From NCBI GenBank assembly GCA_041650895.1, contig JBAZKF010000001.1, positions 145,685 to 209,684 of the forward strand: a stretch of DNA of 64,000 bases, given 5' to 3'. Shown in pieces: positions 27,833 through 64,000 of this stretch; the stretch's first letter is position 1; every line of letters starts with the position of its first letter. Under the pieces are notes generated by a model. That model was not told the origin of the DNA. It made no database searches and saw nothing but the letters and a program-made list of their open reading frames with translations. The stretch is from Patescibacteria group bacterium. GTDB lineage: Bacteria > Patescibacteriota > Patescibacteriia > 2-01-FULL-39-33. A program made the position numbers and the translations under genes.

Positions 27833-29251
27833 ATGACAAAAAAAATACTGCTAATTAACCCTGCCCAGTTTCAACCGATCGCCGCCAATCAGCCAGAAAT
27901 CTACGACAAAGAAATAGATTACCTGCCGTCATTGGGAATTTTATATTTGGCTTCCTATTTGAAAAAATTCGGTAATCATGAAATCAAAATTGCGGATTGC
28001 GGCGTAGAAAATATCAGTTACGACGGAATTGGCGATATCGCCAAAGATTTTAAACCGGATATAGTCGGTATAACCGCTTTAACTTTCGTCCTATTAGACG
28101 TCATAGCCATTATTAAAGCGATCAAAACGTCATTTCCCGGGACTTTAATCGTTCTAGGCGGTCCTCATCCGAATTTATACCCCAATGAAACCATTAACCT
28201 GCCCGGAGTGGATTTCATTGTCCTGGGCGAAGGCGAAAAACCGTTTAAGGAGTTGATTGATAATATTGATGATCGCGAAAAATTAAAAACAACACCTGGA
28301 TTGATCTTTAAACTTAATGGAGAAATAATCAACACCGGCCATTGCGAATTAATCAGCAATTTGGACGAATTGCCTTTTCCAGCTCGACAACTGACAAAAT
28401 ATGACAAGTATTTTTCTATCATCGCGCAAAAATCTCCGGTTACCACTATGTTCACTTCTCGCGGCTGTCCTTACCGCTGCCTGTTTTGCGATCGGCCGTA
28501 TTTAGGGAAAATTTTCCGCGCTCGCAGCGCCAAAAACGTCGTTGATGAAATGGCAGAGATTAAAAAAATGGGGATTGAAGAAATCTTCATCTATGACGAC
28601 ACCTTCACCATTAATCGCCAGAGAACTATCGACATTTGCCACGAAGTAATTAACAGAAAATTAGAAATCAATTGGGATATCCGCGCTCGCGTCAATACGG
28701 TTGATGAAGAGGTGCTTCACTGGCTAAAAATAGCCGGCTGCCGGAGAATCCATTTCGGCGTTGAAGCGGGAACTCAAAAGATACTTGATATACTCAAAAA
28801 AGATATCACGCTGGAGATGGTGGAAAAAGTAATCGGCTGGACAAAAAAAGAGGGCATTGAAACCCTCGCCTACTTCATGATCGGCAATCCTTCGGAAACC
28901 TTGGCCGACATTGAACAAACAATAGCATTCGCCAAAAAGATTGATCCGGATTATATTAATGTTTCTATTACCACTCCTTTCCCGGGCACCCAGTTATACG
29001 ATCAGGCTCTGGAAACAGGCATCATCAAAAGCGATGTCTGGAGGGAATTCGCGGCCAACCCTTCAACGCAATTCATTCCGCCGTTATGGACGGAGAATTT
29101 CTCCCGCGACGAGCTGATCGGCTTAATGCGTCAATTCTACGGTTCTTTCTACCGACGCCCCAAATATATCATCAAAAAACTTCTGGCCGTCAAATCCTGG
29201 GGCGAGTTAGTCAGAAAAGCCAAGGCCGGCTGGCAAGTATTAAAATTCTAA
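27833..29251 (+). CDS. B12-binding-domain radical SAM protein (class B rSAM), paralog 1
   Basis: N-terminal cobalamin-binding domain (KILLINP..., LGILYLASYL, GGPHPN). Radical SAM cluster motif TSRGCPYRCLFCDRP (CxxxCxxC). Confidence 0.85.
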   Translation: MTKKILLINPAQFQPIAANQPEIYDKEIDYLPSLGILYLASYLKKFGNHEIKIADCGVENISYDGIGDIAKDFKPDIVGITALTFVLLDVIAIIKAIKTSFPGTLIVLGGPHPNLYPNETINLPGVDFIVLGEGEKPFKELIDNIDDREKLKTTPGLIFKLNGEIINTGHCELISNLDELPFPARQLTKYDKYFSIIAQKSPVTTMFTSRGCPYRCLFCDRPYLGKIFRARSAKNVVDEMAEIKKMGIEEIFIYDDTFTINRQRTIDICHEVINRKLEINWDIRARVNTVDEEVLHWLKIAGCRRIHFGVEAGTQKILDILKKDITLEMVEKVIGWTKKEGIETLAYFMIGNPSETLADIEQTIAFAKKIDPDYINVSITTPFPGTQLYDQALETGIIKSDVWREFAANPSTQFIPPLWTENFSRDELIGLMRQFYGSFYRRPKYIIKKLLAVKSWGELVRKAKAGWQVLKF

Positions 29252-29254
29252 AAC

Positions 29255-30682
29255 CTATTTAAGGACGTTTTTAAAAATGTTAAGTCCCAGCAGAATATCT
29301 TTCAAGTCTGCCAGGGACTTGATTTTTTTTAGCCGATAAATAATATATTTCGGACGTAAATAAAACTTAATAAAGGCTTTGCGTTTTAATTTCAGCAGGG
29401 TATCACTGCTTAAATCGGGCAAATCCATCGGCGGTATATGATTGGAGACTGAACAAAAATCACTCCAATCAAAATCTTTCCTGATGTATCCGCGAGCCTT
29501 TGCTTCTTCATACATGGGAGTTCCCGGATAAGGAATGGCAACAAAAAAGGCTGCTGTGTCCAGATCCAAGCTACAAGCAAAATCAATCGTCTGATTAACC
29601 GTCCAAGGATCTTCGTCAATATAACCAATAATGAATGCTCCGGAAACCAAGATGTCGTTTTTACGGCATAAGTCAACGGCTATTCTAGCTTGTTCCAGTG
29701 TGGCGCCCTTGCACATCTTATCTAAAATTCTCTGCGAGCCCGATTCAAAACCAAAACCGATCCTTTTACAGCCGGCCCGTCTCATTAACTTGAGCATTTC
29801 ATTATTTACCGAATCAACTCTGGCCATAACCACCCAAGAGATATCCAGCTTCCGCCGGATAATCTCTTCACAAAATTCCTTCACTCTATCTTTATTAGCC
29901 GTAAAGAGTTCGTCATGGAAATTAAAAGAAGTAGCCTGGTAATTTTTCATGCATTCTTCAATCTCGGCCAAAACATTACTCACACTCCTAGTACGATAGC
30001 GCCTTTTCCAAACTGATTCCGCCATGCAAAAACCGCAACGATAAGGACAGCCGCGGCCGGATATGATATTAATCGCCTGCCCCGAGTCCGTCGTTCTGGT
30101 CGGCGGCAAGTAATACTTTTCAACCGGCAATAAATCACGAGCCGGGAACGGTATGGTATCAAGATTATCAATCAGCGGGCGGGGTTCTGTTATTAATATT
30201 TCAGCATTATCGCGATAAGCGATGCCTTTAATCACCCCGAAATCGACTTGCTCGGATATTAAGGCGCGGATTAATTCCAAAAAAGTGACTTCCCCTTCGC
30301 CCAAGACGCAAAAATCTATTGCCGGCATACCCCGCATTGTTTCTTCGGCGGCAATTGTCGGATGTGGCCCGCCGACAATGATTTTTATTGCGGGATTAAT
30401 GACTTTTATCCGCCGCGTAATTTCTTTGAGTTGTTTATAGACAGGCGTGGGGAAAGTCAAAGCGATAAATTGCGGCATGATTTCCTTAATCTTTTCATCT
30501 ATCTGATCATAGGACATTTCCAATGCCTCACCGTCAAGAATTGTTATTTCTACTTCCTGTTCATATTGGCGCAAATAAGCCGCCAGATAAGCCAAATTAA
30601 GCGGAGCGGTTTTCCCACCCTGCCCTTCGATACCGTCATAATTAGTGAAAGGCGGATTAATCAATAAAAGTTTATACTTCAT
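29255..30682 (-). CDS. B12-binding-domain radical SAM protein, paralog 2
   Basis: MKYKLLLINPP..., LNLAYLAAYL, GGPHPT, SGRGCPYRCGFCMAE. It is convergent with paralog 1, with 3 nt between the stop codons. Its start overlaps the upstream stop (ATGA). Confidence 0.85.
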   Translation of the reverse strand: MKYKLLLINPPFTNYDGIEGQGGKTAPLNLAYLAAYLRQYEQEVEITILDGEALEMSYDQIDEKIKEIMPQFIALTFPTPVYKQLKEITRRIKVINPAIKIIVGGPHPTIAAEETMRGMPAIDFCVLGEGEVTFLELIRALISEQVDFGVIKGIAYRDNAEILITEPRPLIDNLDTIPFPARDLLPVEKYYLPPTRTTDSGQAINIISGRGCPYRCGFCMAESVWKRRYRTRSVSNVLAEIEECMKNYQATSFNFHDELFTANKDRVKEFCEEIIRRKLDISWVVMARVDSVNNEMLKLMRRAGCKRIGFGFESGSQRILDKMCKGATLEQARIAVDLCRKNDILVSGAFIIGYIDEDPWTVNQTIDFACSLDLDTAAFFVAIPYPGTPMYEEAKARGYIRKDFDWSDFCSVSNHIPPMDLPDLSSDTLLKLKRKAFIKFYLRPKYIIYRLKKIKSLADLKDILLGLNIFKNVLK

Positions 30683-31653
30683 AAGTCGGTCTTTTTAAAA
30701 AAATTCTTTACGGGTAAAAAAATAGCAATTAAAATTAATAAATAAGCGAGACTAAACAAATGTACTATGAAACCAGAAATAATAGACGCTTCCTTATTTA
30801 AGCCTAATAGTCCGAAGCTGATAGCCCAACCTGTTTCATAAGTTCCGAAGTCCCACAATCCCTGGATAGGCAAAAAACTTATTAATTGACTAAAAATCAA
30901 ACCCAGAGTTACTTTAAGCCAGTTAAAATCTATATTTAGGGCACGGAAAAAAACTACGATCATTAAAGAAGCGGACGCCAGCCACAAGAACGAAATCAAC
31001 AAATTAGTCAAGTAAACGGGCCAGGAACGAATTGTTTTGACGCTTGTTGCAACCTCTTCCAACTTAGTAGCCAGCTTAGCGCCAAATTGAAATTTAGTCA
31101 ATCTTGCCCAATGCATTAAAATAACAACCGCTTTAACCAGCCAATCAAGGTAGAATAATATGGCAATCGTGGCTAACCCAAGCATAAAACAGCTTAGATA
31201 GATTCTATTAGGCGGAATGTAGCCGGGGTTAAGCAAAATAAAACCGATCAGAAAAGAAAAAGCCACTGCCAAAAGATCAAAAAATCTGGCTACCAACAGG
31301 ACACTAAGCCCTTCTGCTATGGCTACATTCTCACGTTTTTTTATGAAATAAACAAAACTTAACTCACCGCTTCTAAACGGCATTAAATTACAAAAAAAAG
31401 TATAACCCAAAGTAATTTTCAAGGAACTCAAAAAACTTATTTTCTTAGAAAGAATCAAGACTTGCCAGCGCCAAGCCCGCAAACAAACGCCGATAAAATA
31501 AAAAATAAACGCGATTAAAGCGTAAGTCCATGATATATTTGAAATAATATCCCTGGCTTGAGTGAAATCAATCTGAGTTAAAAGCAAACACAATAAAATT
31601 ATGGTTACGGCCAAGGAGATTGTTTTTTTGCGCTTGGTTATCTTTTTCAACAT
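30679..31653 (-). CDS. Flippase-like TM-domain protein (lysylphosphatidylglycerol-synthase TM region / UPF0104-like)
   Basis: 324 aa with about 8 TM helices. The N-terminal region ...IDFTQARDIISNISWTYALIAFIFYFIGVCLRAWRWQVLI resembles PF03706-type proteins, which are often coupled to GT2 enzymes. Confidence 0.45.
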   Translation of the reverse strand: MLKKITKRKKTISLAVTIILLCLLLTQIDFTQARDIISNISWTYALIAFIFYFIGVCLRAWRWQVLILSKKISFLSSLKITLGYTFFCNLMPFRSGELSFVYFIKKRENVAIAEGLSVLLVARFFDLLAVAFSFLIGFILLNPGYIPPNRIYLSCFMLGLATIAILFYLDWLVKAVVILMHWARLTKFQFGAKLATKLEEVATSVKTIRSWPVYLTNLLISFLWLASASLMIVVFFRALNIDFNWLKVTLGLIFSQLISFLPIQGLWDFGTYETGWAISFGLLGLNKEASIISGFIVHLFSLAYLLILIAIFLPVKNFFKKTDL

Positions 31654-33488
31654 TATTTTATCAAGTTAAGAAACCACATCTTGCCGGGACTGGTTTCAGC
31701 TTCTATTATTCCCGCCTGAGGCCAATCGACAATGTTTATCGCTTGGCTACTGGAGGAAATCTGCCCCGCTAATTCAGCATCATAACCAATTATATATTTT
31801 ACATTATAAACGTCAAAAGCCGACTGAAGTTTTTGCTCCTGCAATAAATGGTTGATAGTATTCGGAGAAAAATAGACAGTTGATACTCCGGTTAAATAAT
31901 TCAACAGAGGATGCAATGACCTATTGCCTACGGCCACCGCCTCTTCCGGTTTGATGGCGACACCCCAAGAACTGATTTGCTCAGCTGAATAAGCAATTTT
32001 CAAATTTATATTATTATCATATCCCCGGCCCCAATAGACATGATTAGCCTGGACTAAGCCATAAATGATTAAAAGAATAATCACCCCGCCGGCCAGCCGA
32101 CTAAATCTCTTTGCAACATAATAATCGCTGATCATCTTAGCTAAGCTCATCAAGCCCAGACTGATAAAAAGAGCAATCACCCAACCCCAATCCATTAAAT
32201 GATTGCGTGAGGCCAGAACGACGTAACTGGAAATAAAAATAGAAAACACCAGCCAACTGACAAAAAGATTGGTTAGATTCTTGTCTCGACGACTCAAGTC
32301 TTTAATACCCAATAACATTAAAATAAAAAACAGTGATCCGCCAATATACTCCAAGGCGAGAAATCGAGAAAGATGCGCCAGCAGATTATTGGATCCGACA
32401 AGAGCCCGCTCCGCCAAATTGATGGGGCGTATGCCGATATTGGCCCCCACCTTAATCAAGTCAATGCTCTTCAATAATCCTCGACCAGCTATGTCGGAAT
32501 TAAATTTGTCTAAAACCGTTTTCTGATCAAAATAAAAAGTATAGGGATCGGGGAAAAGATGGCCGTAAAAATTAAACTCAGACCAATTATTGGTTTGCGT
32601 CTCGCTGGCAAAAAACACCCTGAAATAATCATTATTACCGCTAAAACCGAATATCGCCGGCAACCAGAAAAAAGCTAATATTACAAAAAAAGGAACAAAC
32701 ACCAAACTGATGTTTCCAAGACTGCTTTTGACGGCATTGTTCCTTAAACCGGTTAAGACGGTTTTAAAACGTAACCAAATCAATCGGAAAAAAGACAAAT
32801 CCGTACGGGAATCGATAATAAGGGGTTGCTCTGAGGACTGAAAAATCAACCAAAAAAATAAAACTGGCGGAAATAAGAACATCACTTCCCGCGACAGGCA
32901 AGCTAGCGACAAAAAGACTCCGGACAAAGGCAGAAAAAAATATCTGCCCTTGACTTTACGGCCGATAAAAAACAAAACGCAAAAAACTGAAAAATACAGC
33001 ATCGCGAATTCGTAGGTGCCGATAGTTTGAACCATCTGGGAATTAAACGGCAATAAGATATAAACCAAAGAAAATATTGCGGCTATTTCCCAATCAAACA
33101 AATAAAACACGACGGCCGCAAATAAAACCAAAGCCAATGCCTGAATAATTACGGCAATGACTATTAAAGTGTTGAAATCTGGCAAGCCGATCAACTGAAA
33201 TAATGCAGCATAAGACCAGGTAGTAAACTTATTGCCCTGGGTACTGAGCTGAGCCCGCTGGCTGACTAAAGACGGCGCCAAAACGACATTGCGGCTGTCC
33301 TCCATGCCGTAAACCCCCGTTTGGACAAGATTCCTGGCCAAAATAAAATTCTCCGCTTCGGCCGGTTGGGCAGTACTGCCCTTAAAAAAAACCGGAAAAT
33401 ACCAAAAACCGGCTGCAACAAAAAAAACTACGGGCAATAAAACAAAAAGAATCGAGCTCTTAAACCTAAAATTTGGCTGTTGCGACAT
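31653..33488 (-). CDS. Large polytopic membrane protein, possibly a GT-C-fold (ArnT/PMT_2-like) glycosyltransferase
   Basis: 611 aa with more than 12 TM helices. The N-terminal AENFILARNLVQTGVYG resembles the conserved start of COG1807-type GT-C enzymes. The assignment is tentative. Confidence 0.4.
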   Translation of the reverse strand: MSQQPNFRFKSSILFVLLPVVFFVAAGFWYFPVFFKGSTAQPAEAENFILARNLVQTGVYGMEDSRNVVLAPSLVSQRAQLSTQGNKFTTWSYAALFQLIGLPDFNTLIVIAVIIQALALVLFAAVVFYLFDWEIAAIFSLVYILLPFNSQMVQTIGTYEFAMLYFSVFCVLFFIGRKVKGRYFFLPLSGVFLSLACLSREVMFLFPPVLFFWLIFQSSEQPLIIDSRTDLSFFRLIWLRFKTVLTGLRNNAVKSSLGNISLVFVPFFVILAFFWLPAIFGFSGNNDYFRVFFASETQTNNWSEFNFYGHLFPDPYTFYFDQKTVLDKFNSDIAGRGLLKSIDLIKVGANIGIRPINLAERALVGSNNLLAHLSRFLALEYIGGSLFFILMLLGIKDLSRRDKNLTNLFVSWLVFSIFISSYVVLASRNHLMDWGWVIALFISLGLMSLAKMISDYYVAKRFSRLAGGVIILLIIYGLVQANHVYWGRGYDNNINLKIAYSAEQISSWGVAIKPEEAVAVGNRSLHPLLNYLTGVSTVYFSPNTINHLLQEQKLQSAFDVYNVKYIIGYDAELAGQISSSSQAINIVDWPQAGIIEAETSPGKMWFLNLIK

Positions 33489-33497: not shown

Positions 33498-34586
33498 TTA
33501 CTTTAAATGAAAATTCCCAAAAACCGCCCTAAACAAATGCCAAGGGCTCATCATAATATTAGGAAGTTGATAACAATAATGAGTACACCAACATTTCTTA
33601 TTCTTAATATCTAACCGTTGCTGTTTCGCAAGGGATGACTGCCAGGCCTTTCTAAAATCATAATCATAATCCCGCAGATTACCTATCTTGGGCAACATTT
33701 CGCAATTATACATATTACCCCAAGCGTCAATAACGGGGAAAAATAAAGCTGAGCGGCAAGGTAGGATTTGTTTTTTTTGCTTCATTATTTTTAATGCTAT
33801 CTTATGGTAATAAGCATAAAACAGCTTATTGGCCAAATCATTGGCCAATGTCTTACTCTTGAATAAAACACGGCTAAGCAATTCCTCATATTGCCCCAAA
33901 TCTACGGGTGCGATTTTTTGCGGGTCAAACGAACCGCGGATTACTTCAATCGTATGATATGTGATGCCGGGATGCTGATCAACAAAATCAATCACCGCGG
34001 CGATATTATCTTGGTTTACATTAGAAATAGTGGTATTAACACTGACCTGCAACAACTCATTAGTCTTAGCGATAGCCGTCAATTTCTCATACGTATCCAA
34101 AAAAAGCTTAAAGTTTCCAGCTATTCCTCTTACCCGATCATGCACCTCTCCGATTCCGTCCAGAGATAGGACTACTTTTAGTTTTATTGGCACGCGAACC
34201 AGTATCCTTTCGACTTGATCCGCTATCTTATCCGGCAAAAGACAATTAGTCGGTATGGCAATTTTTCTAGTGGCGCTGCAACGGTAAAAAATCTCGCAAA
34301 TTTCCGGCAAATCCGGCCGCAAAAACGGTTCACCTCCACCCAAAGTAACGCTTCTTATGTCGCCAATGGTTTGGGTAAATTTTTCTATTTCCGCTAAAGA
34401 AAGCTCCTTAGTTTCCGTGTTTATCACTTGCCAGTTAAAACACATTAGACAACGGGAGTTGCACTTGTTGGTTACTTGAAAAATTAATCCGTAAAGCGGC
34501 CATTCCCTTTTTGATAAAGAATAGAAATAGAACTTGCTTACAGGAAAATATTGTTTAATTATTTTTAATCGTTTAATAAAATCCAT
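33498..34586 (-). CDS. Radical SAM protein (non-B12) with a C-terminal Cys pair (SPASM/twitch-like)
   Basis: FQVTNKCNSRCLMCFNW (CxxxCxxC), GGGEPFLRPDL, SLDGIGEVHDRVRGIAGNFKLF, and C-terminal KCWCTHYCY. It is paralogous to the rSAM domain of the 45035..47599 fusion. Confidence 0.75.
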   Translation of the reverse strand: MDFIKRLKIIKQYFPVSKFYFYSLSKREWPLYGLIFQVTNKCNSRCLMCFNWQVINTETKELSLAEIEKFTQTIGDIRSVTLGGGEPFLRPDLPEICEIFYRCSATRKIAIPTNCLLPDKIADQVERILVRVPIKLKVVLSLDGIGEVHDRVRGIAGNFKLFLDTYEKLTAIAKTNELLQVSVNTTISNVNQDNIAAVIDFVDQHPGITYHTIEVIRGSFDPQKIAPVDLGQYEELLSRVLFKSKTLANDLANKLFYAYYHKIALKIMKQKKQILPCRSALFFPVIDAWGNMYNCEMLPKIGNLRDYDYDFRKAWQSSLAKQQRLDIKNKKCWCTHYCYQLPNIMMSPWHLFRAVFGNFHLK

Positions 34587-34589: not shown

Positions 34590-35546
34590 TTAATCTAGAT
34601 TAAATAACTGCTCTAATTGGTTATTGCTGATCTTTTTTAATCGGCTATTCCTCATTCTGGCATGAAAAATATCAAATGAATTAATAATTATGGAGACAAG
34701 GCTTTTCATAAAGGGCTGGAGATCGGCGGGTTGTCTAAGGCAATGGGCGATATTAAAACGGATATTAAGAGGCAATGATCTGATCAAAAGCAATGCCGGA
34801 TAATTCCTTAGCATAATCAATAGCCGATTACGCATCCACAGGTAGACCGTCCGCTTATTGCCTATTGTCTTATTTACGGTCACGCTCAAACCATGATAGC
34901 TAACGCTGTTTGGCTGATAAACAACTTGATATCCGGCAATATTAACCCTCAACGACAAATCAGTATCTTCATAACCATGATAATATTTTTCGCAGAAACC
35001 ACCGATTTTCTCCAAAACACTGCGCCTGATAATCATGGAAGCGCTACAGGCATAAAGAACCTGCCGACGCTGATTATATTTTGGATCGCTTGATTCTGCG
35101 CCAATACCAATATCATAGCCTTTACCGCGAAACAATATACTACCGCCGGCAGCAGCGATTTTTTCCGGCATACCAGCGAAAAGAATCTTACCTACAGCCT
35201 GGCCGACATTACCATTTGAATCCATTAATCGCACCATCTCAGCCAACCAGGTTTTAGAAAGAACGGCGTCATTATCCATAGTCACTACATATTCAGCTCG
35301 GCCGGAATCAATCCCTTTATTACGCGCCGCCGCCGGACCCAGGTTAGCCTTATTCTCAATAACGGTAATTCCAGGATAGTGCCGTCGAAAATAATCCACT
35401 GAGTCATCCGGAGAATGGTCATCAACCAAAATAATATTATAGTCAATATACGTTGAATCCAACAAAGAGTCAAGGCATTTCGCGGTCAATTCCTTGTTCT
35501 TGTAATTACAAACCACAATATCAATTTTGGGATTAATTTGATTCAT
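34590..35546 (-). CDS. GT2-family glycosyltransferase
   Basis: IDIVVCNYKNKELTAKCLDSL...IILVDDHSPDDS...NLGPAAARNKG. Confidence 0.8.
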   Translation of the reverse strand: MNQINPKIDIVVCNYKNKELTAKCLDSLLDSTYIDYNIILVDDHSPDDSVDYFRRHYPGITVIENKANLGPAAARNKGIDSGRAEYVVTMDNDAVLSKTWLAEMVRLMDSNGNVGQAVGKILFAGMPEKIAAAGGSILFRGKGYDIGIGAESSDPKYNQRRQVLYACSASMIIRRSVLEKIGGFCEKYYHGYEDTDLSLRVNIAGYQVVYQPNSVSYHGLSVTVNKTIGNKRTVYLWMRNRLLIMLRNYPALLLIRSLPLNIRFNIAHCLRQPADLQPFMKSLVSIIINSFDIFHARMRNSRLKKISNNQLEQLFNLD

Positions 35547-57172: not shown

Positions 57173-57858
57173 AAGTTAAACTTAATAATATACCAAATCG
57201 CCGCCAAACCATCTTTCCAGCTTATTTTCTTGCCCTCTTCATAAGTGCGGCCGGCATAAGAAATACCGACTTCATAAATCCGGAATTTACCCCTGGCTAT
57301 CAGGGCGGTAATCTCCGGTTCAACGCCGAATCGATTGGCAGTCAGGCGAGTTTTCAGATAATCAATAACCGGACGATTGAACGCCTTATAGCAAGTCTCC
57401 ATATCTGTTAAGGTCAAATTACTCATAATATTGGAAAAAATAGTCAAAAAAGTATTACCCAGATAATGCCAAAAAAAGAAAACACGGTGAGGTTTGCTGG
57501 TAATGAAACGAGAACCATAAACAACATCAGCCTTGCCGTCAATTATCGGCCCCAATATTTCCTGGTACTCTTGCGGATTGTATTCTAAGTCAGCGTCTTG
57601 AATAATCAATAGATCGCCGGTTGCCACATTAAGGCCACGTTTGATGGCCGAGCCTTTGCCCTCGTTCTTATCCTTTAGAATTACGACGCATTTATCCCGC
57701 GGGCTTGAAATAATATCTCTAGTGCCGTCGGTGGAACCATCATCAATAATAATAATTTCCTTCTCTACGCCGGCAAGCGGCGCTGCCTCCACCTGGCGCA
57801 GTAGTTCCAAGATAGTTTTATGTTCATTATAGACTGGTATGATAACTGACAATTTCAT
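57163..57858 (-). CDS. GT2 polyprenyl-phosphate sugar synthase (DPM1-like), duplicate-module copy B
   Basis: KLSVIIPVYNEHKTILELL...IIIIDDGSTDGT...KNEGKGSAIKRG...QDADLEYNP. 231 aa, paralog of 49069..49764. Confidence 0.8.
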   Translation of the reverse strand: MKLSVIIPVYNEHKTILELLRQVEAAPLAGVEKEIIIIDDGSTDGTRDIISSPRDKCVVILKDKNEGKGSAIKRGLNVATGDLLIIQDADLEYNPQEYQEILGPIIDGKADVVYGSRFITSKPHRVFFFWHYLGNTFLTIFSNIMSNLTLTDMETCYKAFNRPVIDYLKTRLTANRFGVEPEITALIARGKFRIYEVGISYAGRTYEEGKKISWKDGLAAIWYIIKFNLWK

Positions 57859-57873: not shown

Positions 57874-59346
57874 TTAATCGCGTTTAGTATTGATGTCCGG
57901 AGATTTAGGCAAGAAAAAAGAGACTAAAGCCATAAAACCATCAAACAAAATTTTTATATCGTCTAATGATCTAATGCTAAAAATCTTCTTAAGGATGAAT
58001 TTCGGACGAAAATAAAAACTGCGATACATGATTTTATATAAATTCTTTATTTCTTCCGCTGAAAGATTCTCCAATCTCATAACCGGCTTAGCCAAATTAA
58101 AATCATCCCAATTTTCGCTCAACAACAAATCACGTTCCTTGGCCCAATTAAACATGGCCGTGCCGGGAAACGGCGTAGTAATATTGACGATCAGCAAATC
58201 GGGATTTATTTTCTTAACAAAACGGATGTTCTTTTCAATCACTTGGCGACTGTCGCCGGGATTGCCGACCATGAAAGCCAGACGGCATTCTATCCCCGCC
58301 TGCTTAGTCCATTTGACGGCATTGATCACTTGCGGCAAATTGATTTTTTTATTGATATTCTTCAATACGGCCTCATCAACATTTTCCACCCCATACATGA
58401 TCTGATGACAACCGGCGTCTGACATTTTCCGCAACATGGCCTCGTCAACATAATCAACTCGGGCAAAACACGTCCAAGACAAATCCATTTTATTTTTTAT
58501 CAGCAGATCGCACAAGTCAATGACGTTCTGACGAAAAACAGTAAAAGTATCATCATAAAACATGATCTGCCTGATACCGTAATTATCGGCCAAGTATTTT
58601 ATCTCGGCAAAAATCCCGGTGGCCGACTTAAAGATCATCTGATCACCCAAGGTTTTATTGCAGAAAGTGCAACGCCCCGGACAACCTCGGCTAGTCATTA
58701 AACTCATGGCCGGCAACTTCTTATACGAGCCCTTAGCCGGCCGATATTTATCAATCGGCAATAAATCATAAGCCGGCAAAGGCAGATCATCCAAATTGGC
58801 AATCCGCCGACGCGGCGCGTTACGGATTATTTGTTTTTCGCCATTCAATTCTTTCTTATAAACCACGCCGTCAATCTCTTCAATCTTCTTGCCGGATAAT
58901 ATTTCTCCCAAAGTAATCTCCCCTTCGCCGATAACCACCGCATCAACAAATGGTTGATTAATAACCTCATCAGTAACAAAGGTTGCATGAACGCCACCGA
59001 AAATAATCAAAGCATTAGGATAATATAATCGGCAAATTTCCGCCGCCTGATAAGCCTTTTTAATTTGTCCGGTGGTGGCAGTAAAGCCGATCACTCTAAT
59101 ATCCCTGTGATGATCAACAAAATTTTCCTTTAGATAATCGCCGAAGGCCTGGACCGAGGGGCAGGAAACTTCACAATCAATTATCTCTACACTTTGATCC
59201 TGTTGACGGACATAGCCGGCAATGGAAGCCAGCCCCAAAGGAGGGAAATTTGAGTTAATCTCACGCCAAATATTATTCTCATCGCCATAATAATCAGGCG
59301 GAGCGATCAACAAACAATCCAAATTTTTTTGATTATCTTGCGACAT
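57874..59346 (-). CDS. B12-binding-domain radical SAM protein, paralog 9
   Basis: LGLASIAGYV, GGVHAT, TSRGCPGRCTFCNKT. Confidence 0.85.
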   Translation of the reverse strand: MSQDNQKNLDCLLIAPPDYYGDENNIWREINSNFPPLGLASIAGYVRQQDQSVEIIDCEVSCPSVQAFGDYLKENFVDHHRDIRVIGFTATTGQIKKAYQAAEICRLYYPNALIIFGGVHATFVTDEVINQPFVDAVVIGEGEITLGEILSGKKIEEIDGVVYKKELNGEKQIIRNAPRRRIANLDDLPLPAYDLLPIDKYRPAKGSYKKLPAMSLMTSRGCPGRCTFCNKTLGDQMIFKSATGIFAEIKYLADNYGIRQIMFYDDTFTVFRQNVIDLCDLLIKNKMDLSWTCFARVDYVDEAMLRKMSDAGCHQIMYGVENVDEAVLKNINKKINLPQVINAVKWTKQAGIECRLAFMVGNPGDSRQVIEKNIRFVKKINPDLLIVNITTPFPGTAMFNWAKERDLLLSENWDDFNLAKPVMRLENLSAEEIKNLYKIMYRSFYFRPKFILKKIFSIRSLDDIKILFDGFMALVSFFLPKSPDINTKRD

Positions 59347-59351
59347 AGCTT

Positions 59352-61559
59352 TTAAAGGAATCGACTAAAAAACGCTCTGAATCCGTCACTGGTCAACAAC
59401 CATAAATAGTCAACCAAAACAATAACGATAACGACCGCAACCCGACTCGGCCAGCGGTAAAAATATTTTCTTAACCCGTTAACGGCCAACAAGGTTAATA
59501 GCAAAGCCAGGACAAAATACAAACGAGATGACACACCGGTCCAAAGCAAAAACATAAACGACGGCAGAATCAGGCACTTAACCAGGAACCTCTGATCGGC
59601 GGTAAACTCCCGCCATTTAATCAATCCTAACGGCACCAAAAGCCAAGCAGCCAGATAAACGCCGACGATACTCTTAACAACAAAAAACGGCTGATATTCG
59701 GAACCGCTGGGAGCGCTAATGCCCAGTTTATACCAATCCAAATATGAATAATGATAAATGAAATAAACCACGATTTGCCAAGCGATTAAGGGCAAGCCGA
59801 CCGCTAAGGTTGATAAAAATAATTTTTTGAGTTTTTCGGCTCGAGGCAGTTGCGGATGGAAACATATCACCAGATACAGGAAAGCCATACCCAAACTGCT
59901 ATATTCTTTCCATAACATGCCAACAACAACCATCAACGAAGTTAAAAATAAATTAAAGTTGTTAGGCCGTTTATAAAATCTAATGACGCCGATAGCGGCC
60001 AAAACCCAGAATAATTGGGCGCCCGACTCGGTAAACAAATCCAAGCCATACTTAAGTAACGGATAGGAAGAAATATAAATCAACGCTCCCAGAAGCGCCA
60101 TTCCTCTATTTTTAAAAAACAAATAAAATAAAACGTAAACGGCTAAAGCCAAAAAAACATAAAATATAATCGCCTCTATCTCAAAAGCTAACGATAGATT
60201 GCCACCGGTTAAAAACGACAGTCCGGCAATACCCATAGGCCCCAACGGTTTTAAAATTCTGGAAGGAAAACTCTCCGCCATTTGTCCCATAAACAGCTTA
60301 GCCGTTTCCATATACTGATAAGCATCGCCGTTAATGCTAAAACCGACAAAATTGAGCCGAATAAACACGTTCAACGCTACCGCGGTTAAGATTAAAAGAA
60401 TCGGCCAAAAATGATTATTGGTCGACTTGGTCGGCCGGCACTTTTTGTCTATGGCTGTTTGCCAGCTTTTCAGATAAAGCGCCAAATTTTCCTCTCGGCC
60501 GGGCAAAATGTTAATCGCCGATTCGGCCGACTGGCTGAGTTGCCGGCGCAAGCCAATATTCTGAATAATCTTTTTCATGGCGTCAGCTAATTTTTCTTCG
60601 TCGCCAACGGGCGTGATTAATGCGCTGACTCCGTCTTTCAACACCTCACCGGCGCAACCGACATCAGTCATCACTACCGCCAAACCGCAACTGGCGGCTT
60701 CTATTATCACCATCCCCCAACCCTCATAATCAGAACTCAAAACATAACTATCGGCTGAGTTGTAATAATCATAAATATTGTCAGTCCAACCGATCAAAAA
60801 GATTTTATCCTCCAAGCCGGATTCTTTTATTTGTTGGGCGAGTTTGTCTTTTTCCGGACCGCGACCGACTATAAGCAAAACCGCCTCCGGCAATTGCCGG
60901 GCAACCGTGGCGAAAGCTCTGATCAGCAACGGCAGATTTTTCTGTTTTACCAATCGAGCCATAGTCAAAAAAACAGTTTTGCCGACTAAGCGGCCGAAAA
61001 TCTCCGGCTTAGTTTCGCTGAATTGCTTCTCGGGCTTAACATAGACAGGAACAACAACAATTTTATCTTCGGCTATATGCAAATCATTAACCAAAGTATC
61101 CTTTATCCGCTCACTGACTGCGCGCACGCTGTCGGCTCGCTTAATCAGCCAGCGCCCCAGATAATAACGGCAAAAGTTAATAGGATTTTCATTGCGCCAA
61201 TAAGTCGCGCTAAAAAAATCGCCATGTTCCTGAATATTCAAAGCGCTCTTGAATTTCCTAGCCAGCAATAATCCCATCAGCGACAATTCAAAAGGATCTT
61301 GAACCGTTATGACATCATAATTATTCTGGCGGAACAGTTTTTTCGCTAACCGATACATATTGAATAGTGCCGCTAATCGGTTGCCGCCACCCGTGCCGTA
61401 AGCCGTTACTTTTTCTGATAATTTAATTTCTTGCGCTGGCGTAGCGGGCACGATAATATCATAAGCGTCCGTCATAACGCCATACTCAATCAAACGCCGA
61501 GTTACGGGTGATGAGGAAACGAATACGCCTTTATCGGTGCCTAAGTTTAATACTTTCAT
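59352..61559 (-). CDS. Fusion: N-terminal GT4 (GT-B) glycosyltransferase plus a C-terminal ~350-aa polytopic membrane domain
   Basis: 735 aa. Residues 1-380 form a GT-B fold with EAASCGLAVVMTDVGCAGEVLKDG. Residues ~385-735 contain about 10 predicted TM helices (NHFWPILLILTAVALNVF...). Confidence 0.7.
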   Translation of the reverse strand: MKVLNLGTDKGVFVSSSPVTRRLIEYGVMTDAYDIIVPATPAQEIKLSEKVTAYGTGGGNRLAALFNMYRLAKKLFRQNNYDVITVQDPFELSLMGLLLARKFKSALNIQEHGDFFSATYWRNENPINFCRYYLGRWLIKRADSVRAVSERIKDTLVNDLHIAEDKIVVVPVYVKPEKQFSETKPEIFGRLVGKTVFLTMARLVKQKNLPLLIRAFATVARQLPEAVLLIVGRGPEKDKLAQQIKESGLEDKIFLIGWTDNIYDYYNSADSYVLSSDYEGWGMVIIEAASCGLAVVMTDVGCAGEVLKDGVSALITPVGDEEKLADAMKKIIQNIGLRRQLSQSAESAINILPGREENLALYLKSWQTAIDKKCRPTKSTNNHFWPILLILTAVALNVFIRLNFVGFSINGDAYQYMETAKLFMGQMAESFPSRILKPLGPMGIAGLSFLTGGNLSLAFEIEAIIFYVFLALAVYVLFYLFFKNRGMALLGALIYISSYPLLKYGLDLFTESGAQLFWVLAAIGVIRFYKRPNNFNLFLTSLMVVVGMLWKEYSSLGMAFLYLVICFHPQLPRAEKLKKLFLSTLAVGLPLIAWQIVVYFIYHYSYLDWYKLGISAPSGSEYQPFFVVKSIVGVYLAAWLLVPLGLIKWREFTADQRFLVKCLILPSFMFLLWTGVSSRLYFVLALLLTLLAVNGLRKYFYRWPSRVAVVIVIVLVDYLWLLTSDGFRAFFSRFL

Positions 61560-61567: not shown

Positions 61568-63013
61568 TTATTTAGTAATAAATTTCTTGGCCAATTTAAA
61601 TTCCACCGGCCAGAAAAAAAATTTCAATTTCCAACGCAGTTTACATAAACAAATAAAACAGAATTTGAGTAATTTATTGGAAGAGACAGTTGAATTCATC
61701 GCGCTCTTGAATGACAAGGCGCCGAATCTGACATAGGCCTCCATTGATTCCACAAAGTCCTTGTCCTTAACCCAAGGAAAATTCTCTACTGACATGTAGC
61801 TCAACTCGTTCTCTGAAACCTTTTTCCATTCCTCAAGCGACTGCGGTTCCCGCCAGCCGGCCTTGACGCATTCCTCATATAACTCTGATCCGGGGTAGGG
61901 GCGAAACGCTTGAGGGCCCAAAATCTGGACCTCGTCGCTTAAGGCGATTAAGCGATCAATCAACCTCAGGGTTTCCTGCATATCACTCCGCGACTCGCCA
62001 GGCAAACCAATCATGAATGAATACTGAGGTATGATGCCATGCTTGAGGCAGGCCTTAGCGGAAGCGACTATGTCATCGGCGGTAACGTCTTTTTTGATCA
62101 TTTTTAAGATACGGCTACTGCCGGATTCGGCGCCGAAAGACAACAAATAACAGCCGGACTGCTTTAACTTGGCTAAAAGTTCATCATCCACCATCCCCGG
62201 CTTAAGGTAATCGGCGCGAATAGTGGTTTCCCAAGGCAAAACCAGATCTTCCCTAATCATGCCGTCAATGATCGCCTTAGCGCGGCTGATATCCACAAAA
62301 AAGTTCTCGTCCCAAAAACGCAATTTCTTGCCCTGGAAATACTCCTTGGCCTTAATTATCCGTAAATCCTCAAGCACCTGCTCGGTCGTCCGAGCGCGCC
62401 AATGATTTTTCAAAATCGCATTAATGCAAAAAGTACAACGATGCGGACAACCGCGCGAAGTTAGAGAAGGAATCAAATATAGATGCTCTCTGATTTCCTG
62501 AGGCACTAAATCCCAATTAAATAACGGCATGGCTTGGGGTTGATGCAGGGGTTGCGGCTGATTGACAATAACTCTCCCGTCAGCGCAATAAGCGAGGCCT
62601 TTGATTTCTGCCAGGGATCGGCCTCGCGCCAACTGCAACATGGTTTCTTCGCCTTCGCCGATAACTACTATATCAATCAGCGGATTTTTGGCTGTCTGCT
62701 CAATAAAAAAAGTCGGATGCGATCCGCCCCAAACAATTTGGGCGGCGGGATTGATTCTTCTGGCCAACTCGGAGATTTTCAAGGCATTGGAGATCTGCAT
62801 GGTCATAACTGAAACACCGATCAAATCAAAATCCTTAATCGCTTGCTCCAATAAGCTCAAATAATCCTTCTGCCTGACGCCGTCTATCATCTTGACCTCC
62901 ACTCCTTGACTATCTAAGTAGGTGGCAATACTCAACAAACCGACAGAAATAGAGCTGTCGTAATTATCTTTAACTATATTAAATTCGGGATTGATCAGTA
63001 AAACTTTTTTCAT
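61568..63013 (-). CDS. B12-binding-domain radical SAM protein, paralog 10
   Basis: MKKVLLINPEFN..., GGSHPT, TSRGCPHRCTFCINAI. Confidence 0.85.
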   Translation of the reverse strand: MKKVLLINPEFNIVKDNYDSSISVGLLSIATYLDSQGVEVKMIDGVRQKDYLSLLEQAIKDFDLIGVSVMTMQISNALKISELARRINPAAQIVWGGSHPTFFIEQTAKNPLIDIVVIGEGEETMLQLARGRSLAEIKGLAYCADGRVIVNQPQPLHQPQAMPLFNWDLVPQEIREHLYLIPSLTSRGCPHRCTFCINAILKNHWRARTTEQVLEDLRIIKAKEYFQGKKLRFWDENFFVDISRAKAIIDGMIREDLVLPWETTIRADYLKPGMVDDELLAKLKQSGCYLLSFGAESGSSRILKMIKKDVTADDIVASAKACLKHGIIPQYSFMIGLPGESRSDMQETLRLIDRLIALSDEVQILGPQAFRPYPGSELYEECVKAGWREPQSLEEWKKVSENELSYMSVENFPWVKDKDFVESMEAYVRFGALSFKSAMNSTVSSNKLLKFCFICLCKLRWKLKFFFWPVEFKLAKKFITK

Positions 63014-64000
63014 TGCATTTTTTTCAATAAATCAACGGTTTGATCCACTGTCTGCCGCCAAGAAAAATCTTTCAGCTTGACTGTTGCCGCTTCGGTCAGC
63101 TTTTGAGCCAAAGGACGGTCAGTCAATAGTCGGAAAATCGCTTCAATTAATTGTTTTTGATTATTGTAGTTTACCAGCAAGCCGTTCTGGCCGTCTGTAA
63201 TAACCTCGGGATTGCCGCCGACGTCAGTGGCGATTACCGGCGCCCCGGCTTTTATGGCTTCCAATAATGTATGGGACAGGCCTTCATAATTGGTGTTTAA
63301 AACAAAAACATCGGCGTGACTGAAATATTCCAAAACTTTTTCATGCGGTACGCGATCAAGAAACTTTATTTGCTCGGCCAGTTTCAAAGACTGAGCCAGG
63401 TTCTGCAGATTCTCTAACTCCGGACCATCGCCCAAAACGATCAAATAGGCCCGACCCAAACGCTTGATGATTTCCGGCATCGCCCGGATTAATTGATCCA
63501 CGCCCTTCCATTTGGTTAACCGGCAAGCCGTCATAATTATGGAACCGTCGTTAGGCAGATTAATGGGGGCTGATTTATTAACGCTAACCTCATCGCCAAA
63601 ATCAATCGCATTATATATGACATTTATTTTGGCTAAGTCAACGCCGATCAGCTTGGCCAAATCGCCCATAAAATTGCTGACGGCAATAATCGCATCGGCT
63701 TCCAATAATATCCGGCGGCGACGCGCTTTCATTCTTTCAATTTGTTGATTATAAATATTCTTTTCAAAGTCGGTGATGTAATCGGTTGTCCAGCCGTTAG
63801 CGGTGGCTGTTTCCCAGGCGGCATCGCCGGCAAACCTGACTAAATATTTTTTCTTGGTTATTTTTTTTATCAAATTGGCAAACCAGCCGACACTGTAGAT
63901 ATCGGTTACATAAATCAGGTCGGCGTTAAAAGACAGGAAAAGCATAGCCAAAAAATAATGCAACCGACTGAAAACTTTATTTTTTGCCACTCGATAAACG
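63010..64000 (-). CDS. GT4-family glycosyltransferase, probably partial. The N-terminus likely extends beyond the window end.
   Basis: The C-terminal half ...FVLNTNYEGLSHTLLEAIKAGAPVIATDVGGNPEVITDGQNGLLV is GT4. The reading frame is open to position 64000. The Met at 63990 gives only 326 aa and lacks the usual GT4 N-terminus. Confidence 0.7.
   Translation of the reverse strand, partial: VYRVAKNKVFSRLHYFLAMLFLSFNADLIYVTDIYSVGWFANLIKKITKKKYLVRFAGDAAWETATANGWTTDYITDFEKNIYNQQIERMKARRRRILLEADAIIAVSNFMGDLAKLIGVDLAKINVIYNAIDFGDEVSVNKSAPINLPNDGSIIMTACRLTKWKGVDQLIRAMPEIIKRLGRAYLIVLGDGPELENLQNLAQSLKLAEQIKFLDRVPHEKVLEYFSHADVFVLNTNYEGLSHTLLEAIKAGAPVIATDVGGNPEVITDGQNGLLVNYNNQKQLIEAIFRLLTDRPLAQKLTEAATVKLKDFSWRQTVDQTVDLLKKMQ

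Follow-up and report, generated by a model that had tools for sequence, protein, structure and literature searches.

A probable surface-glycan assembly locus of about 45 kb in a Patescibacteria (Candidate Phyla Radiation, CPR) bacterium close to Ca. Buchananbacteria (GCA_041650895.1, contig JBAZKF010000001.1) carries twelve radical SAM (rSAM) enzymes, ten of them with a vitamin-B12-type domain. In the 64,000-nucleotide stretch of DNA that was analysed (positions 145,685 to 209,684 of the contig; hereafter the window), the locus runs from about position 19258 to beyond position 64000. The observation of the first-pass annotation, ten genes combining a B12-binding and a radical SAM domain among glycosyltransferase genes, was confirmed. 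Its interpretation was partly supported: assignment of these genes to a glycan or glycoconjugate pathway was supported, whereas cobalamin use and C-methylation are not established.

Radical SAM genes of the locus

All ten ORFs exist at the coordinates given in the first-pass annotation. Profile searches, which could have refuted the observation, showed that all ten proteins carry PF02310 (B12-binding; 40.7-89.9 bits, cut-off 32.1) and PF04055 (Radical_SAM; 61.7-109.8 bits, cut-off 29.5). Each contains exactly one CxxxCxxC motif inside an invariant RGCPxxCxxC block. As claimed in the first-pass annotation, the ten are paralogues at the protein level only, with pairwise identities of 21-37% (mean 29%). 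None reached a curated NCBIfam cut-off; the best-scoring named families were HpnJ, BchE and AprD4, with HpnJ and BchE scoring best.

rSAM#1 (27833-29251, + strand, 472 aa; PF02310, 83 bits; PF04055, 94 bits; motif CPYRCLFC at residue 212) is full-length HpnJ-like (252 bits versus a cut-off of 577.6). The other nine are encoded on the - strand. rSAM#2 (29255-30682, 475 aa; PF02310, 80 bits; PF04055, 80.4 bits) matched BchE (243 bits) and HpnJ (238 bits), both below cut-off. rSAM#3 (35551-36975, 474 aa) scored 76.6 bits for PF04055 and 40.7 bits for PF02310. rSAM#4 (39562-41058, 498 aa; PF02310, 82.1 bits; PF04055, 61.7 bits) is the most divergent, with 21-27% identity to the other nine. rSAM#5 (42255-43670, 471 aa) scored 91.5 bits for PF04055 and 77.3 bits for PF02310. 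rSAM#6 (43672-45021, 449 aa; PF04055, 83.9 bits; PF02310, 44.1 bits) was scored on a longer, mechanically called 511-aa ORF with a GTG start (43672-45207), but the ATG start at 45021 ("MKIF...") used in the first-pass annotation is supported by a 451-aa orthologue in the related metagenomic locus L002. rSAM#7 (47611-49050, 479 aa) scored 89.9 bits for PF02310 and 89.6 bits for PF04055. rSAM#8 (51550-53709, 719 aa; PF04055, 109.8 bits; PF02310, 57.2 bits) is fused to a C-terminal MetW-like class I methyltransferase (PF07021, 72.2 bits), a fusion that is conserved in the related loci L001, L002, L010 and L013. rSAM#9 (57874-59346, 490 aa; PF04055, 74.9 bits; PF02310, 65.2 bits) is paired with a small GT2, and rSAM#10 (61568-63013, 481 aa; PF04055, 78.1 bits; PF02310, 75.7 bits) lies between two GT4 genes.

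The two radical SAM domains without a B12 domain were also confirmed. A 362-aa enzyme (33498-34586, -; PF04055, 54.7 bits) has the motif CNSRCLMC at residue 42, and its best NCBIfam hits, AhbD, MoaA and NirJ, were far below cut-off. A fusion protein (45035-47599, -) combines an N-terminal GT-C (PMT_2) membrane glycosyltransferase (PF13231, 33.4 bits), whose membrane topology in the fusion could not be settled, with a C-terminal radical SAM/SPASM domain (PF04055, 85.1 bits; PF13186, 30.4 bits; motif CNLRCKMC).

Glycan-assembly genes and gene order

The locus starts earlier than the first-pass annotation indicated, with four - strand genes: a GT2 glycosyltransferase (19258-20310, 350 aa; PF00535, 85.5 bits), a small GT2 (20705-21367, 220 aa; PF00535, 77.3 bits), an NDP-sugar epimerase/4,6-dehydratase-like SDR enzyme (21371-22411; hits to dTDP-glucose 4,6-dehydratase, LegB and GalE, all below cut-off) and a GtrA-family small membrane protein (22525-22992; PF04138 GtrA_DPMS_TM, 112.9 bits, cut-off 26.1), a candidate flippase for polyprenyl-P-sugars. 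These are followed by a six-gene + strand operon (23051-29251), which encodes a priming polyprenyl glycosylphosphotransferase (23051-24400; TIGR03025, 376 bits, above the cut-off of 295.55), a GT2 with two C-terminal TM helices at residues 231-249 and 259-277 (24414-25292; GtrB/ArnC/PpgS-like polyprenyl-P-sugar synthase type, with best NCBIfam hits PpgS, PgfS and ArnC all below cut-off), a class I SAM methyltransferase (25307-26011; NCBIfam methyltransferase hits below cut-off), a CE4 polysaccharide deacetylase with DUF3473 (25998-26837; PF11959, 96.2 bits; PF01522, 64.8 bits; TIGR03006, 188.6 bits, below the cut-off of 276.2), a FemAB-like acyl/aminoacyl transferase (26785-27828; PF13480 and PF02388; TIGR03019, 184 bits, below the cut-off of 260) and, as its last gene, rSAM#1.

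This operon converges, with a 3-bp gap, on a - strand array of 27 genes in the window. The first-pass annotation had described a single co-directional array of 26 genes; in close relatives the - strand array has one more GT4 beyond position 64000. Next to rSAM#2 lie genes for a flippase-like polytopic membrane protein of the LPG_synthase_TM family (30679-31653; PF03706, 111 bits; TIGR00374, 53.5 bits, above the cut-off of 43.2) and a 611-aa polytopic membrane protein (31653-33488; about 10 hydrophobic segments) that is only weakly GT-C-like (PF13231 PMT_2, 18.9 bits, below the cut-off of 26.1). Further along the array are a soluble 318-aa GT2 (34590-35546; PF00535, 100 bits), a GT4 (36984-38213; PF00534, 108.5 bits), a Wzx-type flippase (38217-39551; PF01943, 61.1 bits; PF13440, 57.4 bits) and a GT9 (heptosyltransferase-family) glycosyltransferase (41122-42258; PF01075, 62 bits).

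Beyond rSAM#7 lie GT2_b, a small soluble, polyprenyl-P-sugar-synthase-like GT2 (49069-49764, 231 aa; best NCBIfam hits AglJ, ArnC and PpgS, below cut-off), a class I SAM methyltransferase (49769-50425; PF13489 and PF08241) and a GT4 (50435-51577; PF00534, 91.8 bits). These are followed, after rSAM#8, by a GT4 (53696-54775; PF13692 and PF00534), an IcaB/PgaB-like CE4 polysaccharide deacetylase (54780-55514; PF01522, 95.8 bits; IcaB, 109 bits, below cut-off), a GT4 (55498-56589; PF00534, 74 bits), a class I SAM methyltransferase (56570-57172; PF13489, 50.8 bits) and GT2_c, a second small soluble GT2 that is AglJ/ArnC/PpgS-like (57163-57858, 231 aa; PF00535, 111.7 bits; AglJ, 112 bits, below cut-off). 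rSAM#10 is flanked by a GT4 (59352-61559; PF00534, 138.9 bits at residues 184-346) fused to a C-terminal polytopic membrane domain of about 8 TM helices (hydrophobic segments at residues 387-725), a C-terminal half without any Pfam hit, and by a GT4 (63010-63990; PF00534, 148.4 bits) that overlaps it by 4 bp. Six GT4 genes were counted within 27833-64000, rather than the seven previously listed.

Gene packing is very tight, with gaps of -53 to +63 bp and several 4-bp overlaps; the radical SAM genes are translationally packed between glycosyltransferase genes, and no gap is large enough for a precursor peptide. No Wzy polymerase or chain-length regulator was found in the window; a Wzy_C+TPR protein was seen only in the related locus L011. 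The window also has no cobalamin riboswitch, transporter or biosynthesis gene.

Collinear loci and conserved modules

Ten such genes among about 33 contiguous genes is far beyond chance, and recurrence of the arrangement in independent assemblies excludes an assembly artefact. The whole array is collinear at 74-91% amino-acid identity in Ca. Buchananbacteria contigs (L001/L011, L010) and at 50-82% in L002/L013, which has gained and lost radical SAM genes.

Two modules are widely conserved. For rSAM#10, 174 metagenomic relatives were found; a GT4 resembling the one at 63010-63990 lies directly upstream in 54 of 62 loci, and a GT4_e-like gene lies directly downstream in 36 of 63. The second module consists of a small GT2, rSAM#7 and a GT-C. 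Orthologues of rSAM#7 lie next to PMT/PMT_2 genes in five lineages; at 48-72% identity, and usually with a GT2 gene (most often small), this holds in Terrybacteria, Elusimicrobiota, a Woesearchaeota archaeon and a Thermoguttaceae MAG. The module is found across CPR, Elusimicrobiota, a DPANN archaeon and a Planctomycete. Homologues of the GT-C fusion occur as PMT_2 alone, GT2+PMT_2 (about 700 aa), PMT_2+rSAM/SPASM and, in other CPR genomes, GT2+PMT_2+rSAM/SPASM (about 1080 aa). The GT2 domain of these fusions is 55-60% identical to GT2_b, so the two genes that flank rSAM#7 here are a single protein elsewhere. In addition, a GT2–rSAM#9-like pair recurs in the metagenomic loci L016, L040 and L058.

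The AF2 model of rSAM#7 (pLDDT 93) matched OxsB, CysS, TsrM, TokK and MgmA at query-normalised TM-scores of 0.65-0.73. The closest solved structure, however, was AprD4, a sugar dehydratase with the same architecture but without cobalamin (PMC12931638), so the "B12" label is only a fold-level assignment.

Inferred pathway and chemistry

Taken together, these results are best explained, with moderate confidence, by a cell-surface glycan or glycoconjugate assembly pathway that works on polyprenyl-phosphate carriers. In this view, a priming phosphoglycosyltransferase and cytoplasmic GT4, GT2 and GT9 enzymes would build a lipid-linked oligosaccharide that is flipped across the membrane by Wzx. In parallel, small DPM1/AglJ/ArnC-like GT2 enzymes would make polyprenyl-P-monosaccharides, which would be flipped by GtrA or the flippase-like protein and attached outside the cell by GT-C (PMT_2) enzymes. 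Consistent with such a side branch, the small GT2 enzymes score best against polyprenyl-P-sugar synthases (AglJ, ArnC, PpgS, Dol-P-hexose transferase), although below cut-off. The ten anciently diverged enzymes of class-B architecture, the two further radical SAM domains, at least five class I methyltransferase domains and two CE4 deacetylases would tailor individual sugars while these are still lipid-linked on the cytoplasmic face, each at a defined step between two glycosyl transfers.

Domain content, the organism, collinearity, conserved modules and gene fusions are shown by the analysis, whereas the lipid-linked substrate stage, the cytoplasmic location of tailoring, cobalamin use and the reaction types are inferred from sequence, predicted structure and gene context, without experimental data. 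Moreover, gene context cannot separate action on lipid-linked sugars from action on nucleotide sugars. The nearest families do act on sugars: HpnJ acts, on genetic evidence, on a lipid-linked glucosamine after a glycosyltransferase and a deacetylase (PMC13459092), and AprD4 acts on an aminoglycoside sugar. The first-pass annotation proposed extensive C-methylation or other radical modification of the glycan. Methylation of unactivated carbons remains possible, but the best-scoring named families (HpnJ, BchE and AprD4) are not methylases, and HpnJ/Cds-like ring contraction, AprD4-like deoxygenation, or SPASM-type oxidation or epimerisation could also be involved. The evidence supports assignment of the radical SAM genes to a glycan or glycoconjugate pathway and not to a RiPP cluster or a known antibiotic or hopanoid cluster.

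Literature searches turned up no description of such a system, and two 2026 reviews list no polysaccharide-tailoring B12 radical SAM enzyme. That a CPR bacterium with a genome of only about 1 Mb devotes this much sequence to the locus makes the finding more striking, and points to sugar chemistry in a cell-surface glycan that has not yet been described.

Gene content of the radical SAM-rich glycan locus

Analysis of open reading frames (ORFs) placed all ten genes for B12-domain radical SAM proteins (numbered here #1 to #10 in order of position) at the coordinates reported in the first-pass annotation. In all ten encoded proteins, Pfam detected both PF02310 (B12-binding; 40.7-89.9 bits, cut-off 32.1) and PF04055 (Radical_SAM; 61.7-109.8 bits) above gathering score, so that the observation, for which absence of these domains had been set as a refuting outcome, held. 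The ten proteins aligned over their full length and shared an invariant RGCPxxCxxC block, within which each had exactly one CxxxCxxC motif. A GGxH motif at the end of the Rossmann domain was nearly invariant, with only the first Gly varying, and a GEGE motif was also largely conserved. Pairwise identity was only 21-37%, with a mean of 29%. The product of 51550-53709 carried an additional C-terminal MetW-like class I methyltransferase domain. Two non-B12 radical SAM domains were also confirmed, at 33498-34586 and in the C-terminal radical SAM/SPASM half of 45035-47599, whose N-terminal half is a PMT_2 GT-C glycosyltransferase. The remaining genes were as previously annotated, with small corrections: six instead of seven GT4 genes were found in the range, the - strand carried 27 instead of 26 genes, and the first radical SAM gene (27833-29251), which had been included in a single co-directional array, is on the + strand and ends a six-gene operon that converges on the - strand array with a 3-bp gap. 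Gaps between genes ranged from -53 to +63 bp, and these near-zero distances argue for co-transcription.

The + strand operon starts with a priming polyprenyl glycosylphosphotransferase (TIGR03025, 376 bits, above the cut-off of 295.55), followed by a GtrB/ArnC/PpgS-like GT2 with two C-terminal TM helices (24414-25292), a methyltransferase, a CE4/DUF3473 deacetylase and a FemAB-like protein. Immediately upstream and divergent lie a GtrA-family protein (22525-22992; PF04138, 112.9 bits), an NDP-sugar epimerase/dehydratase and two more GT2 genes. The glycan locus therefore spans about 19258 to beyond 64000. A Wzx flippase was identified by PF01943 (61.1 bits) and PF13440 (57.4 bits), both above cut-off, and the GT-C half of 45035-47599 by PF13231 (33.4 bits, cut-off 26.1). 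A flippase-like LPG_synthase_TM protein also lies in the operon. No Wzy polymerase or ligase and no chain-length regulator was identified in the window, although no assignment was obtained for a 611-aa membrane protein or for the C-terminal part of 59352-61559 (-). The latter gene encodes a GT4 fused to a polytopic membrane domain of about 370 aa, with about 8 hydrophobic segments and no Pfam match, which could be an unrecognised polymerase, ligase or GT-C-like module; in several related loci its orthologue is a plain GT4 of about 370 aa. The DUF3473 deacetylase and the FemAB-like gene suggested an XrtA/PEP-CTERM exopolysaccharide system, but TIGR03013 (369.7 bits, cut-off 393.35), TIGR03006 (188.6 bits, cut-off 276.2) and TIGR03019 (184 bits, cut-off 260.35) all scored below cut-off and the window holds no exosortase.

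The rest of the window is housekeeping (MurA/AroA-like, MetRS, TatD, LutAB-like, a ZIP transporter and two tRNAs). The adjacent tRNA-Val(CAC) and tRNA-Ala(CGC) genes (18201-18351, -), just before the start of the glycan locus, were the only Rfam matches in the window, and no cobalamin riboswitch or other B12-related gene was found in it. A 228-aa, RsmI-sized TP_methylase (11555-12241) is a housekeeping-type gene beside MetRS and was not taken as a corrin pathway gene. Envelope-related genes outside the cluster encode a membrane protein of the SfLAP (sulfolipid-1-addressing protein) family (16332-17441, -) and a PEGA-domain protein with weak beta-propeller matches (3722-5071, +). ORFs of 620 aa (6758-8620, -) and 255 aa (15410-16177, -) had no Pfam match at E <= 1e-4, and the 620-aa ORF had none at E <= 0.05. 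A partial ORF of more than 700 aa (1-2111, -), which runs off the window start, has a GSGKT P-loop and looks like a DEAH/HrpA-type helicase; the first 2 kb had a clearly higher G+C content (51.6%) than the rest of the window (37-45%).

Conservation, recurrent modules and gene fusions

The GT-C::radical SAM fusion had 81% and 52% identical relatives in two Ca. Buchananbacteria MAGs. The array was collinear, gene for gene, in the related loci L001/L011 (one 262-kb contig) and L010, at 74-92% amino-acid identity. In L002/L013, a related Buchananbacteria cluster, it was collinear at about 50-82% identity, but rSAM#7 and #9 were missing and three other B12-type radical SAM genes (L002 1734-3173 and 16534-17994; L013 4948-6303), only 29-34% identical to any of the ten in the window, were present instead. 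These results indicated that the cluster is real, is under selection and turns over its radical SAM genes, and the locus seems to be a hot spot for their gain and loss. In these relatives, the operon starts one GT4 gene beyond the end of the window. Further out lie a UDP-glucose/GDP-mannose-dehydrogenase-like gene, a divergent GT4, a 746-aa Wzy_C (O-antigen ligase/polymerase family) protein with a weak, sub-threshold TPR match and a MacB-type ABC transporter. In L011, the closest relative, the Wzy_C protein (3213-5453) lies about 5 kb beyond the operon start and the transporter at 347-2260. The Wzy_C protein could be the polymerase, the ligase or a PglL-like protein O-oligosaccharyltransferase for this glycan.

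Two modules were widely conserved. In the first, GT4–rSAM#10–GT4, rSAM#10 had at least 174 relatives in metagenomes, of which the 80 retrieved were 63-90% identical; orthologues were abundant in groundwater of the Hainich wells. A GT4_f-like gene (resembling the GT4 gene upstream of rSAM#10 in the window) was located immediately upstream in 54 of 62 informative loci, while a GT4_e-like gene was located immediately downstream in 36 of 63 and another B12-type radical SAM gene in 9 of 63. Loci of at least 15 kb carried one to four such radical SAM genes, and of the 296 neighbour slots around 148 B12-type radical SAM ORFs, 150 were occupied by GT4.

In the second module, small GT2–rSAM#7–GT-C, rSAM#7 (47611-49050) had orthologues at 48-72% identity well outside CPR, located next to a PMT or PMT_2 GT-C, usually with a GT2 gene that was most often small. 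The gene orders were GT2(231 aa)–rSAM–PMT_2 in Terrybacteria, GT2–PMT–rSAM–rSAM–GT9–rSAM–PMT_2–methyltransferase in Elusimicrobiota, GT2–GT2–rSAM–PMT_2–Wzx-like in a Woesearchaeota archaeon and rSAM–PMT_2 in a Thermoguttaceae MAG. A Nitrospirota contig showed rSAM–GT2–methyltransferase. The Terrybacteria-like contig L005 (1-21437) carried two B12-type and four SPASM radical SAM genes, five methyltransferases, an asparagine synthase, a GT47 (exostosin-family) glycosyltransferase and two small ORFs (65 and 71 aa), a different mix of radical enzymes around the same GT2–rSAM#7–GT-C core.

Homologues of the GT-C in 45035-47599 occurred in four architectures: PMT_2 alone (about 470 aa), GT2+PMT_2 (about 700 aa; Falkowbacteria and Parcubacteria), PMT_2+rSAM/SPASM (about 850 aa) and GT2+PMT_2+rSAM/SPASM (1076-1084 aa). 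In the three triple fusions (P0128, P0129 and P0130), the N-terminal domain is a DPM1-like GT2. The GT2 domain of the fusions was 55-60% identical over its full length to GT2_b (49069-49764), a small GT2 of the window. As the order in the window is GT2_b, rSAM#7, GT-C::rSAM/SPASM, the radical SAM gene sits between two genes that form one polypeptide elsewhere. GT2_b and GT2_c, the second small GT2, scored best against AglJ (100-112 bits), ArnC, PpgS and Dol-P-hexose transferase, which are polyprenyl-phosphate sugar synthases, although all these scores were below cut-off.

Relationship to characterised enzymes and systems

Relatedness to named families was judged from NCBIfam bit scores, and none of the ten proteins reached a curated cut-off. 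HpnJ (TIGR03471, cut-off 577.6) was the best-scoring named family for six of the ten, with 252 bits for #1 and 87.8-238 bits for the others. BchE (TIGR02026, cut-off 481.35) scored at most 243 bits (#2), and there is no chlorophyll gene context. AprD4 (NF033070, cut-off 500) scored at most 129.9 bits (#1). Other best-scoring families were ApyD, PhpK-like families and rSAM_ladder_B12. A profile of the ten proteins retrieved AprD4 (6fd2, top hit), MgmA (9ccb), OxsB, TsrM, CysS and TokK from the PDB. AprD4 aligned only to the radical SAM core (query 161-430), whereas the cobalamin binders also aligned across the N-terminal domain (query positions 20-64 onwards). An AlphaFold model of rSAM#7 was confident (pLDDT 93.2, pTM 0.91). 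Its top structural hit was AprD4 (Foldseek E = 2.4e-26, query-normalised TM-score (TMq) 0.72), while MgmA, OxsB, CysS, TsrM and TokK matched at TMq 0.65-0.73, and this comparison did not separate cobalamin binders from AprD4-like non-binders. The architecture is therefore class B, but since AprD4 has this architecture without cobalamin (PMC12931638), cobalamin use by the ten proteins is, on present evidence, only predicted. No sequence motif is diagnostic of cobalamin binding, because known members bind the cofactor base-off/His-off.

In the hopanoid HpnI–HpnK–HpnJ system, a glycosyltransferase adds GlcNAc to a lipid-bound acceptor and a deacetylase removes the acetyl group, after which HpnJ, a B12-domain radical SAM enzyme, is genetically required to convert the lipid-linked glucosamine into a cyclitol ether, a reaction proposed to be a ring contraction (PMC13459092). 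The locus likewise pairs glycosyltransferases with CE4 deacetylases, but it has ten paralogues instead of one enzyme, its inferred carrier (from the priming transferase, Wzx, GtrA and GT-C) is a polyprenyl phosphate and not a hopanoid, and no squalene-hopene cyclase (shc), hpnH, hpnI, hpnK or other hpn gene was found among the window ORFs of at least 150 aa that were scanned. Calditol synthase (Cds) of Sulfolobus, a single radical SAM enzyme in the context of archaeal tetraether lipids, is proposed to ring-contract a lipid-linked glucose head group (PMC13459092) and is a precedent for radical remodelling of lipid-bound hexoses. AprD4, the radical SAM 1,2-diol dehydratase of apramycin biosynthesis, acts on a sugar ring, although its substrate is a soluble aminoglycoside. 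GenK, GenD1, Fms7 and MoeK5 are class B C-methyltransferases that tailor antibiotic sugars within glycosyltransferase-containing clusters (PMC12931638); they belong to small-molecule pathways of Actinobacteria, with one or two such enzymes per cluster and no lipid-carrier glycan machinery.

The same logic is found in three-component extracytoplasmic glycosylation systems (GtrA/GtrB/GtrV type; ArnC–ArnD–ArnT; polyprenyl-P-pentofuranose systems, PMC11127046). A GT2 makes a polyprenyl-P-sugar, an enzyme modifies the sugar while it is still lipid-linked, a small flippase moves it across the membrane and a GT-C transfers it outside. The window encodes small GT2 enzymes, GtrA, a flippase-like protein and PMT_2 GT-C proteins. 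The known modifying enzymes in such systems are a CE4 deformylase (ArnD) or, reportedly, an epimerase, whereas here the sandwiched or fused modifiers are radical SAM enzymes. To our knowledge, no GT2–GT-C–radical SAM fusion has been described.

Literature searches found no description of B12 radical SAM enzymes in polysaccharide, O-antigen, polyprenyl or GT-C contexts, or in CPR. Two 2026 reviews, on B12-dependent radical SAM enzymes (PMC12931638) and on radical SAM enzymes in lipid modification (PMC13459092), list no polysaccharide or carrier-lipid example. The only CPR-related paper found to mention B12-binding radical SAM genes describes clusters next to nitrogenase paralogues in Elusimicrobia, an explanation that was rejected because no NifH/D/K-like genes are present here. 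The component proteins belong to known superfamilies, while the radical-tailoring load and the GT2–GT-C–radical SAM fusions appear to be undescribed.

Proposed pathway, alternative explanations and implications

What the sequence analysis showed is a carrier-lipid glycan assembly locus with twelve radical SAM domains, in which two modules are conserved across phyla and are linked by gene fusion to the GT2 → GT-C route. It is inferred that the radical SAM enzymes act, possibly with cobalamin, on polyprenyl-P/PP-linked sugars at the cytoplasmic face, each between defined glycosyl-transfer steps, and that the modified sugars or oligosaccharide are then flipped by GtrA, the flippase-like protein or Wzx and transferred by GT-C enzymes or ligated outside the cell, with radical SAM enzymes as the middle component of an ArnC–ArnD–ArnT-like scheme. 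Since radical SAM and GT2 domains need cytoplasmic SAM, reductant and nucleotide sugars, the fusions imply that both termini of the GT-C are cytoplasmic; this too is an inference, as a crude hydropathy count gave about 8 merged segments for the GT-C::rSAM fusion, too uncertain to place the C-terminus. The chemistry may be C-methylation, at which the fused and neighbouring class I methyltransferases hint, but may equally be non-methylating radical chemistry. The earlier interpretation of the locus, as a pathway for an extensively C-methylated or otherwise radical-modified glycan, was partly supported.

A serious alternative for the chemistry, though not for the pathway, and on balance an unlikely one, is that some or all of the ten are AprD4-like enzymes whose N-terminal Rossmann domain does not bind B12 and which catalyse dehydration/deoxygenation or other non-methylating reactions on the sugars. 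Consistent with this possibility, AprD4 was the top hit in both sequence-profile and structure searches, and AprD4 and ArsL homologues sit inside B12-rSAM similarity networks without binding cobalamin (PMC12931638). In addition, the host is a CPR bacterium with an inferred genome size of about 1 Mb, such genomes generally lack cofactor biosynthesis, and the window has no B12-related gene or riboswitch. However, the N-terminal alignment of the cobalamin binders, the PF02310 scores and the low NF033070 scores argue against it, as does strong conservation of the N-terminal domain among rSAM#7 orthologues, with an invariant GGxH and many invariant Gly/Pro residues.

Modification of the lipid part rather than the sugars, with the polyprenyl carrier, or scavenged membrane lipids that the glycosyltransferases then glycosylate, as target and a tailored glycolipid or lipoglycan as product, is improbable. 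Sub-threshold hits to lipid-acting class B families were observed (rSAM_ladder_B12 was the top hit for #4, and HpnR also appeared), the non-B12 radical SAM protein hit Tes, the operon contains the LPG_synthase_TM protein and many radical SAM enzymes modify lipids (PMC13459092). However, all lipid-family scores were far below cut-off, the conserved neighbours are glycosyltransferases and not lipid-synthesis genes, rSAM#10 lies between two GT4 genes in most loci, and ten different enzymes are hard to reconcile with a single lipid tail.

Even less likely is modification of a protein or peptide encoded elsewhere (a RiPP-like product, an S-layer protein or a pilin) that is then glycosylated by the glycosyltransferases, including the PMT-type GT-C. 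Sub-threshold hits to the RiPP enzymes ApyD and rSAM_ocin_1 and to SPASM peptide maturases, the membership of PMT_2 in the protein O-mannosyltransferase family, the small ORFs and four SPASM radical SAM genes of L005 and the Wzy_C+TPR protein of L011, whose family also contains PglL-type O-oligosaccharyltransferases, are compatible with this view. However, no intergenic gap in the cluster exceeds 63 bp, so that it holds no precursor gene, the window holds no protease, leader-recognition or ABC-exporter genes, RiPP-family scores were far below cut-off, and the GT2–GT-C–rSAM/SPASM fusions tie the radical SAM domain to the lipid-linked sugar donor. A cluster for a small aminoglycoside-like or moenomycin-like (phosphoglycolipid) product, the setting of all characterised sugar-acting class B enzymes of the GenK, GenD1, Fms7 and MoeK5 type (PMC12931638; PMC4340712; PMC5819394), is the least likely alternative, because no aminocyclitol or prenyl-phosphoglycerate genes are present, the locus carries hallmarks of envelope glycan assembly (priming phosphoglycosyltransferase, Wzx, GtrA and GT-C) and its modules are widespread in minimal CPR genomes and in a DPANN archaeon.

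A more far-reaching reading, possible but held only tentatively, is that CPR bacteria and, through shared modules, some Elusimicrobiota, Planctomycetes and DPANN archaea make surface glycans in which several residues are C-methylated, ring-contracted to carbocycles, deoxygenated or C–C linked while still bound to the polyprenyl-phosphate carrier. The enzymes would be a previously unrecognised set of HpnJ/BchE-like radical SAM subfamilies that work as the middle component of GT2 → radical SAM → GT-C assembly units, sometimes fused into a single polypeptide. This would be a new class of glycan chemistry, would add polyprenyl-linked sugars as a substrate class for class B radical SAM enzymes and would imply an unexpected corrinoid demand in minimal symbiotic genomes.

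No class B radical SAM enzyme has been shown to act on a polysaccharide or on a carrier-lipid-linked sugar, and known sugar-acting members work on antibiotics or on a hopanoid head group. Ten distinct subfamilies in one locus, together with the GT2–GT-C–radical SAM fusions, give a set of directly testable enzyme–substrate hypotheses. C-alkylated or carbocyclic residues in a polymer would be new building blocks and could resist hydrolysis. The cell envelope of CPR episymbionts is largely unknown. If the 957,791-bp source contig is close to the whole genome, as is inferred, the locus occupies about 4-5% of it, a commitment which implies that the product matters to the cell, for example in attachment to the host or resistance to degradation. 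Such a locus would also require scavenged corrinoids, SAM and low-potential electrons.
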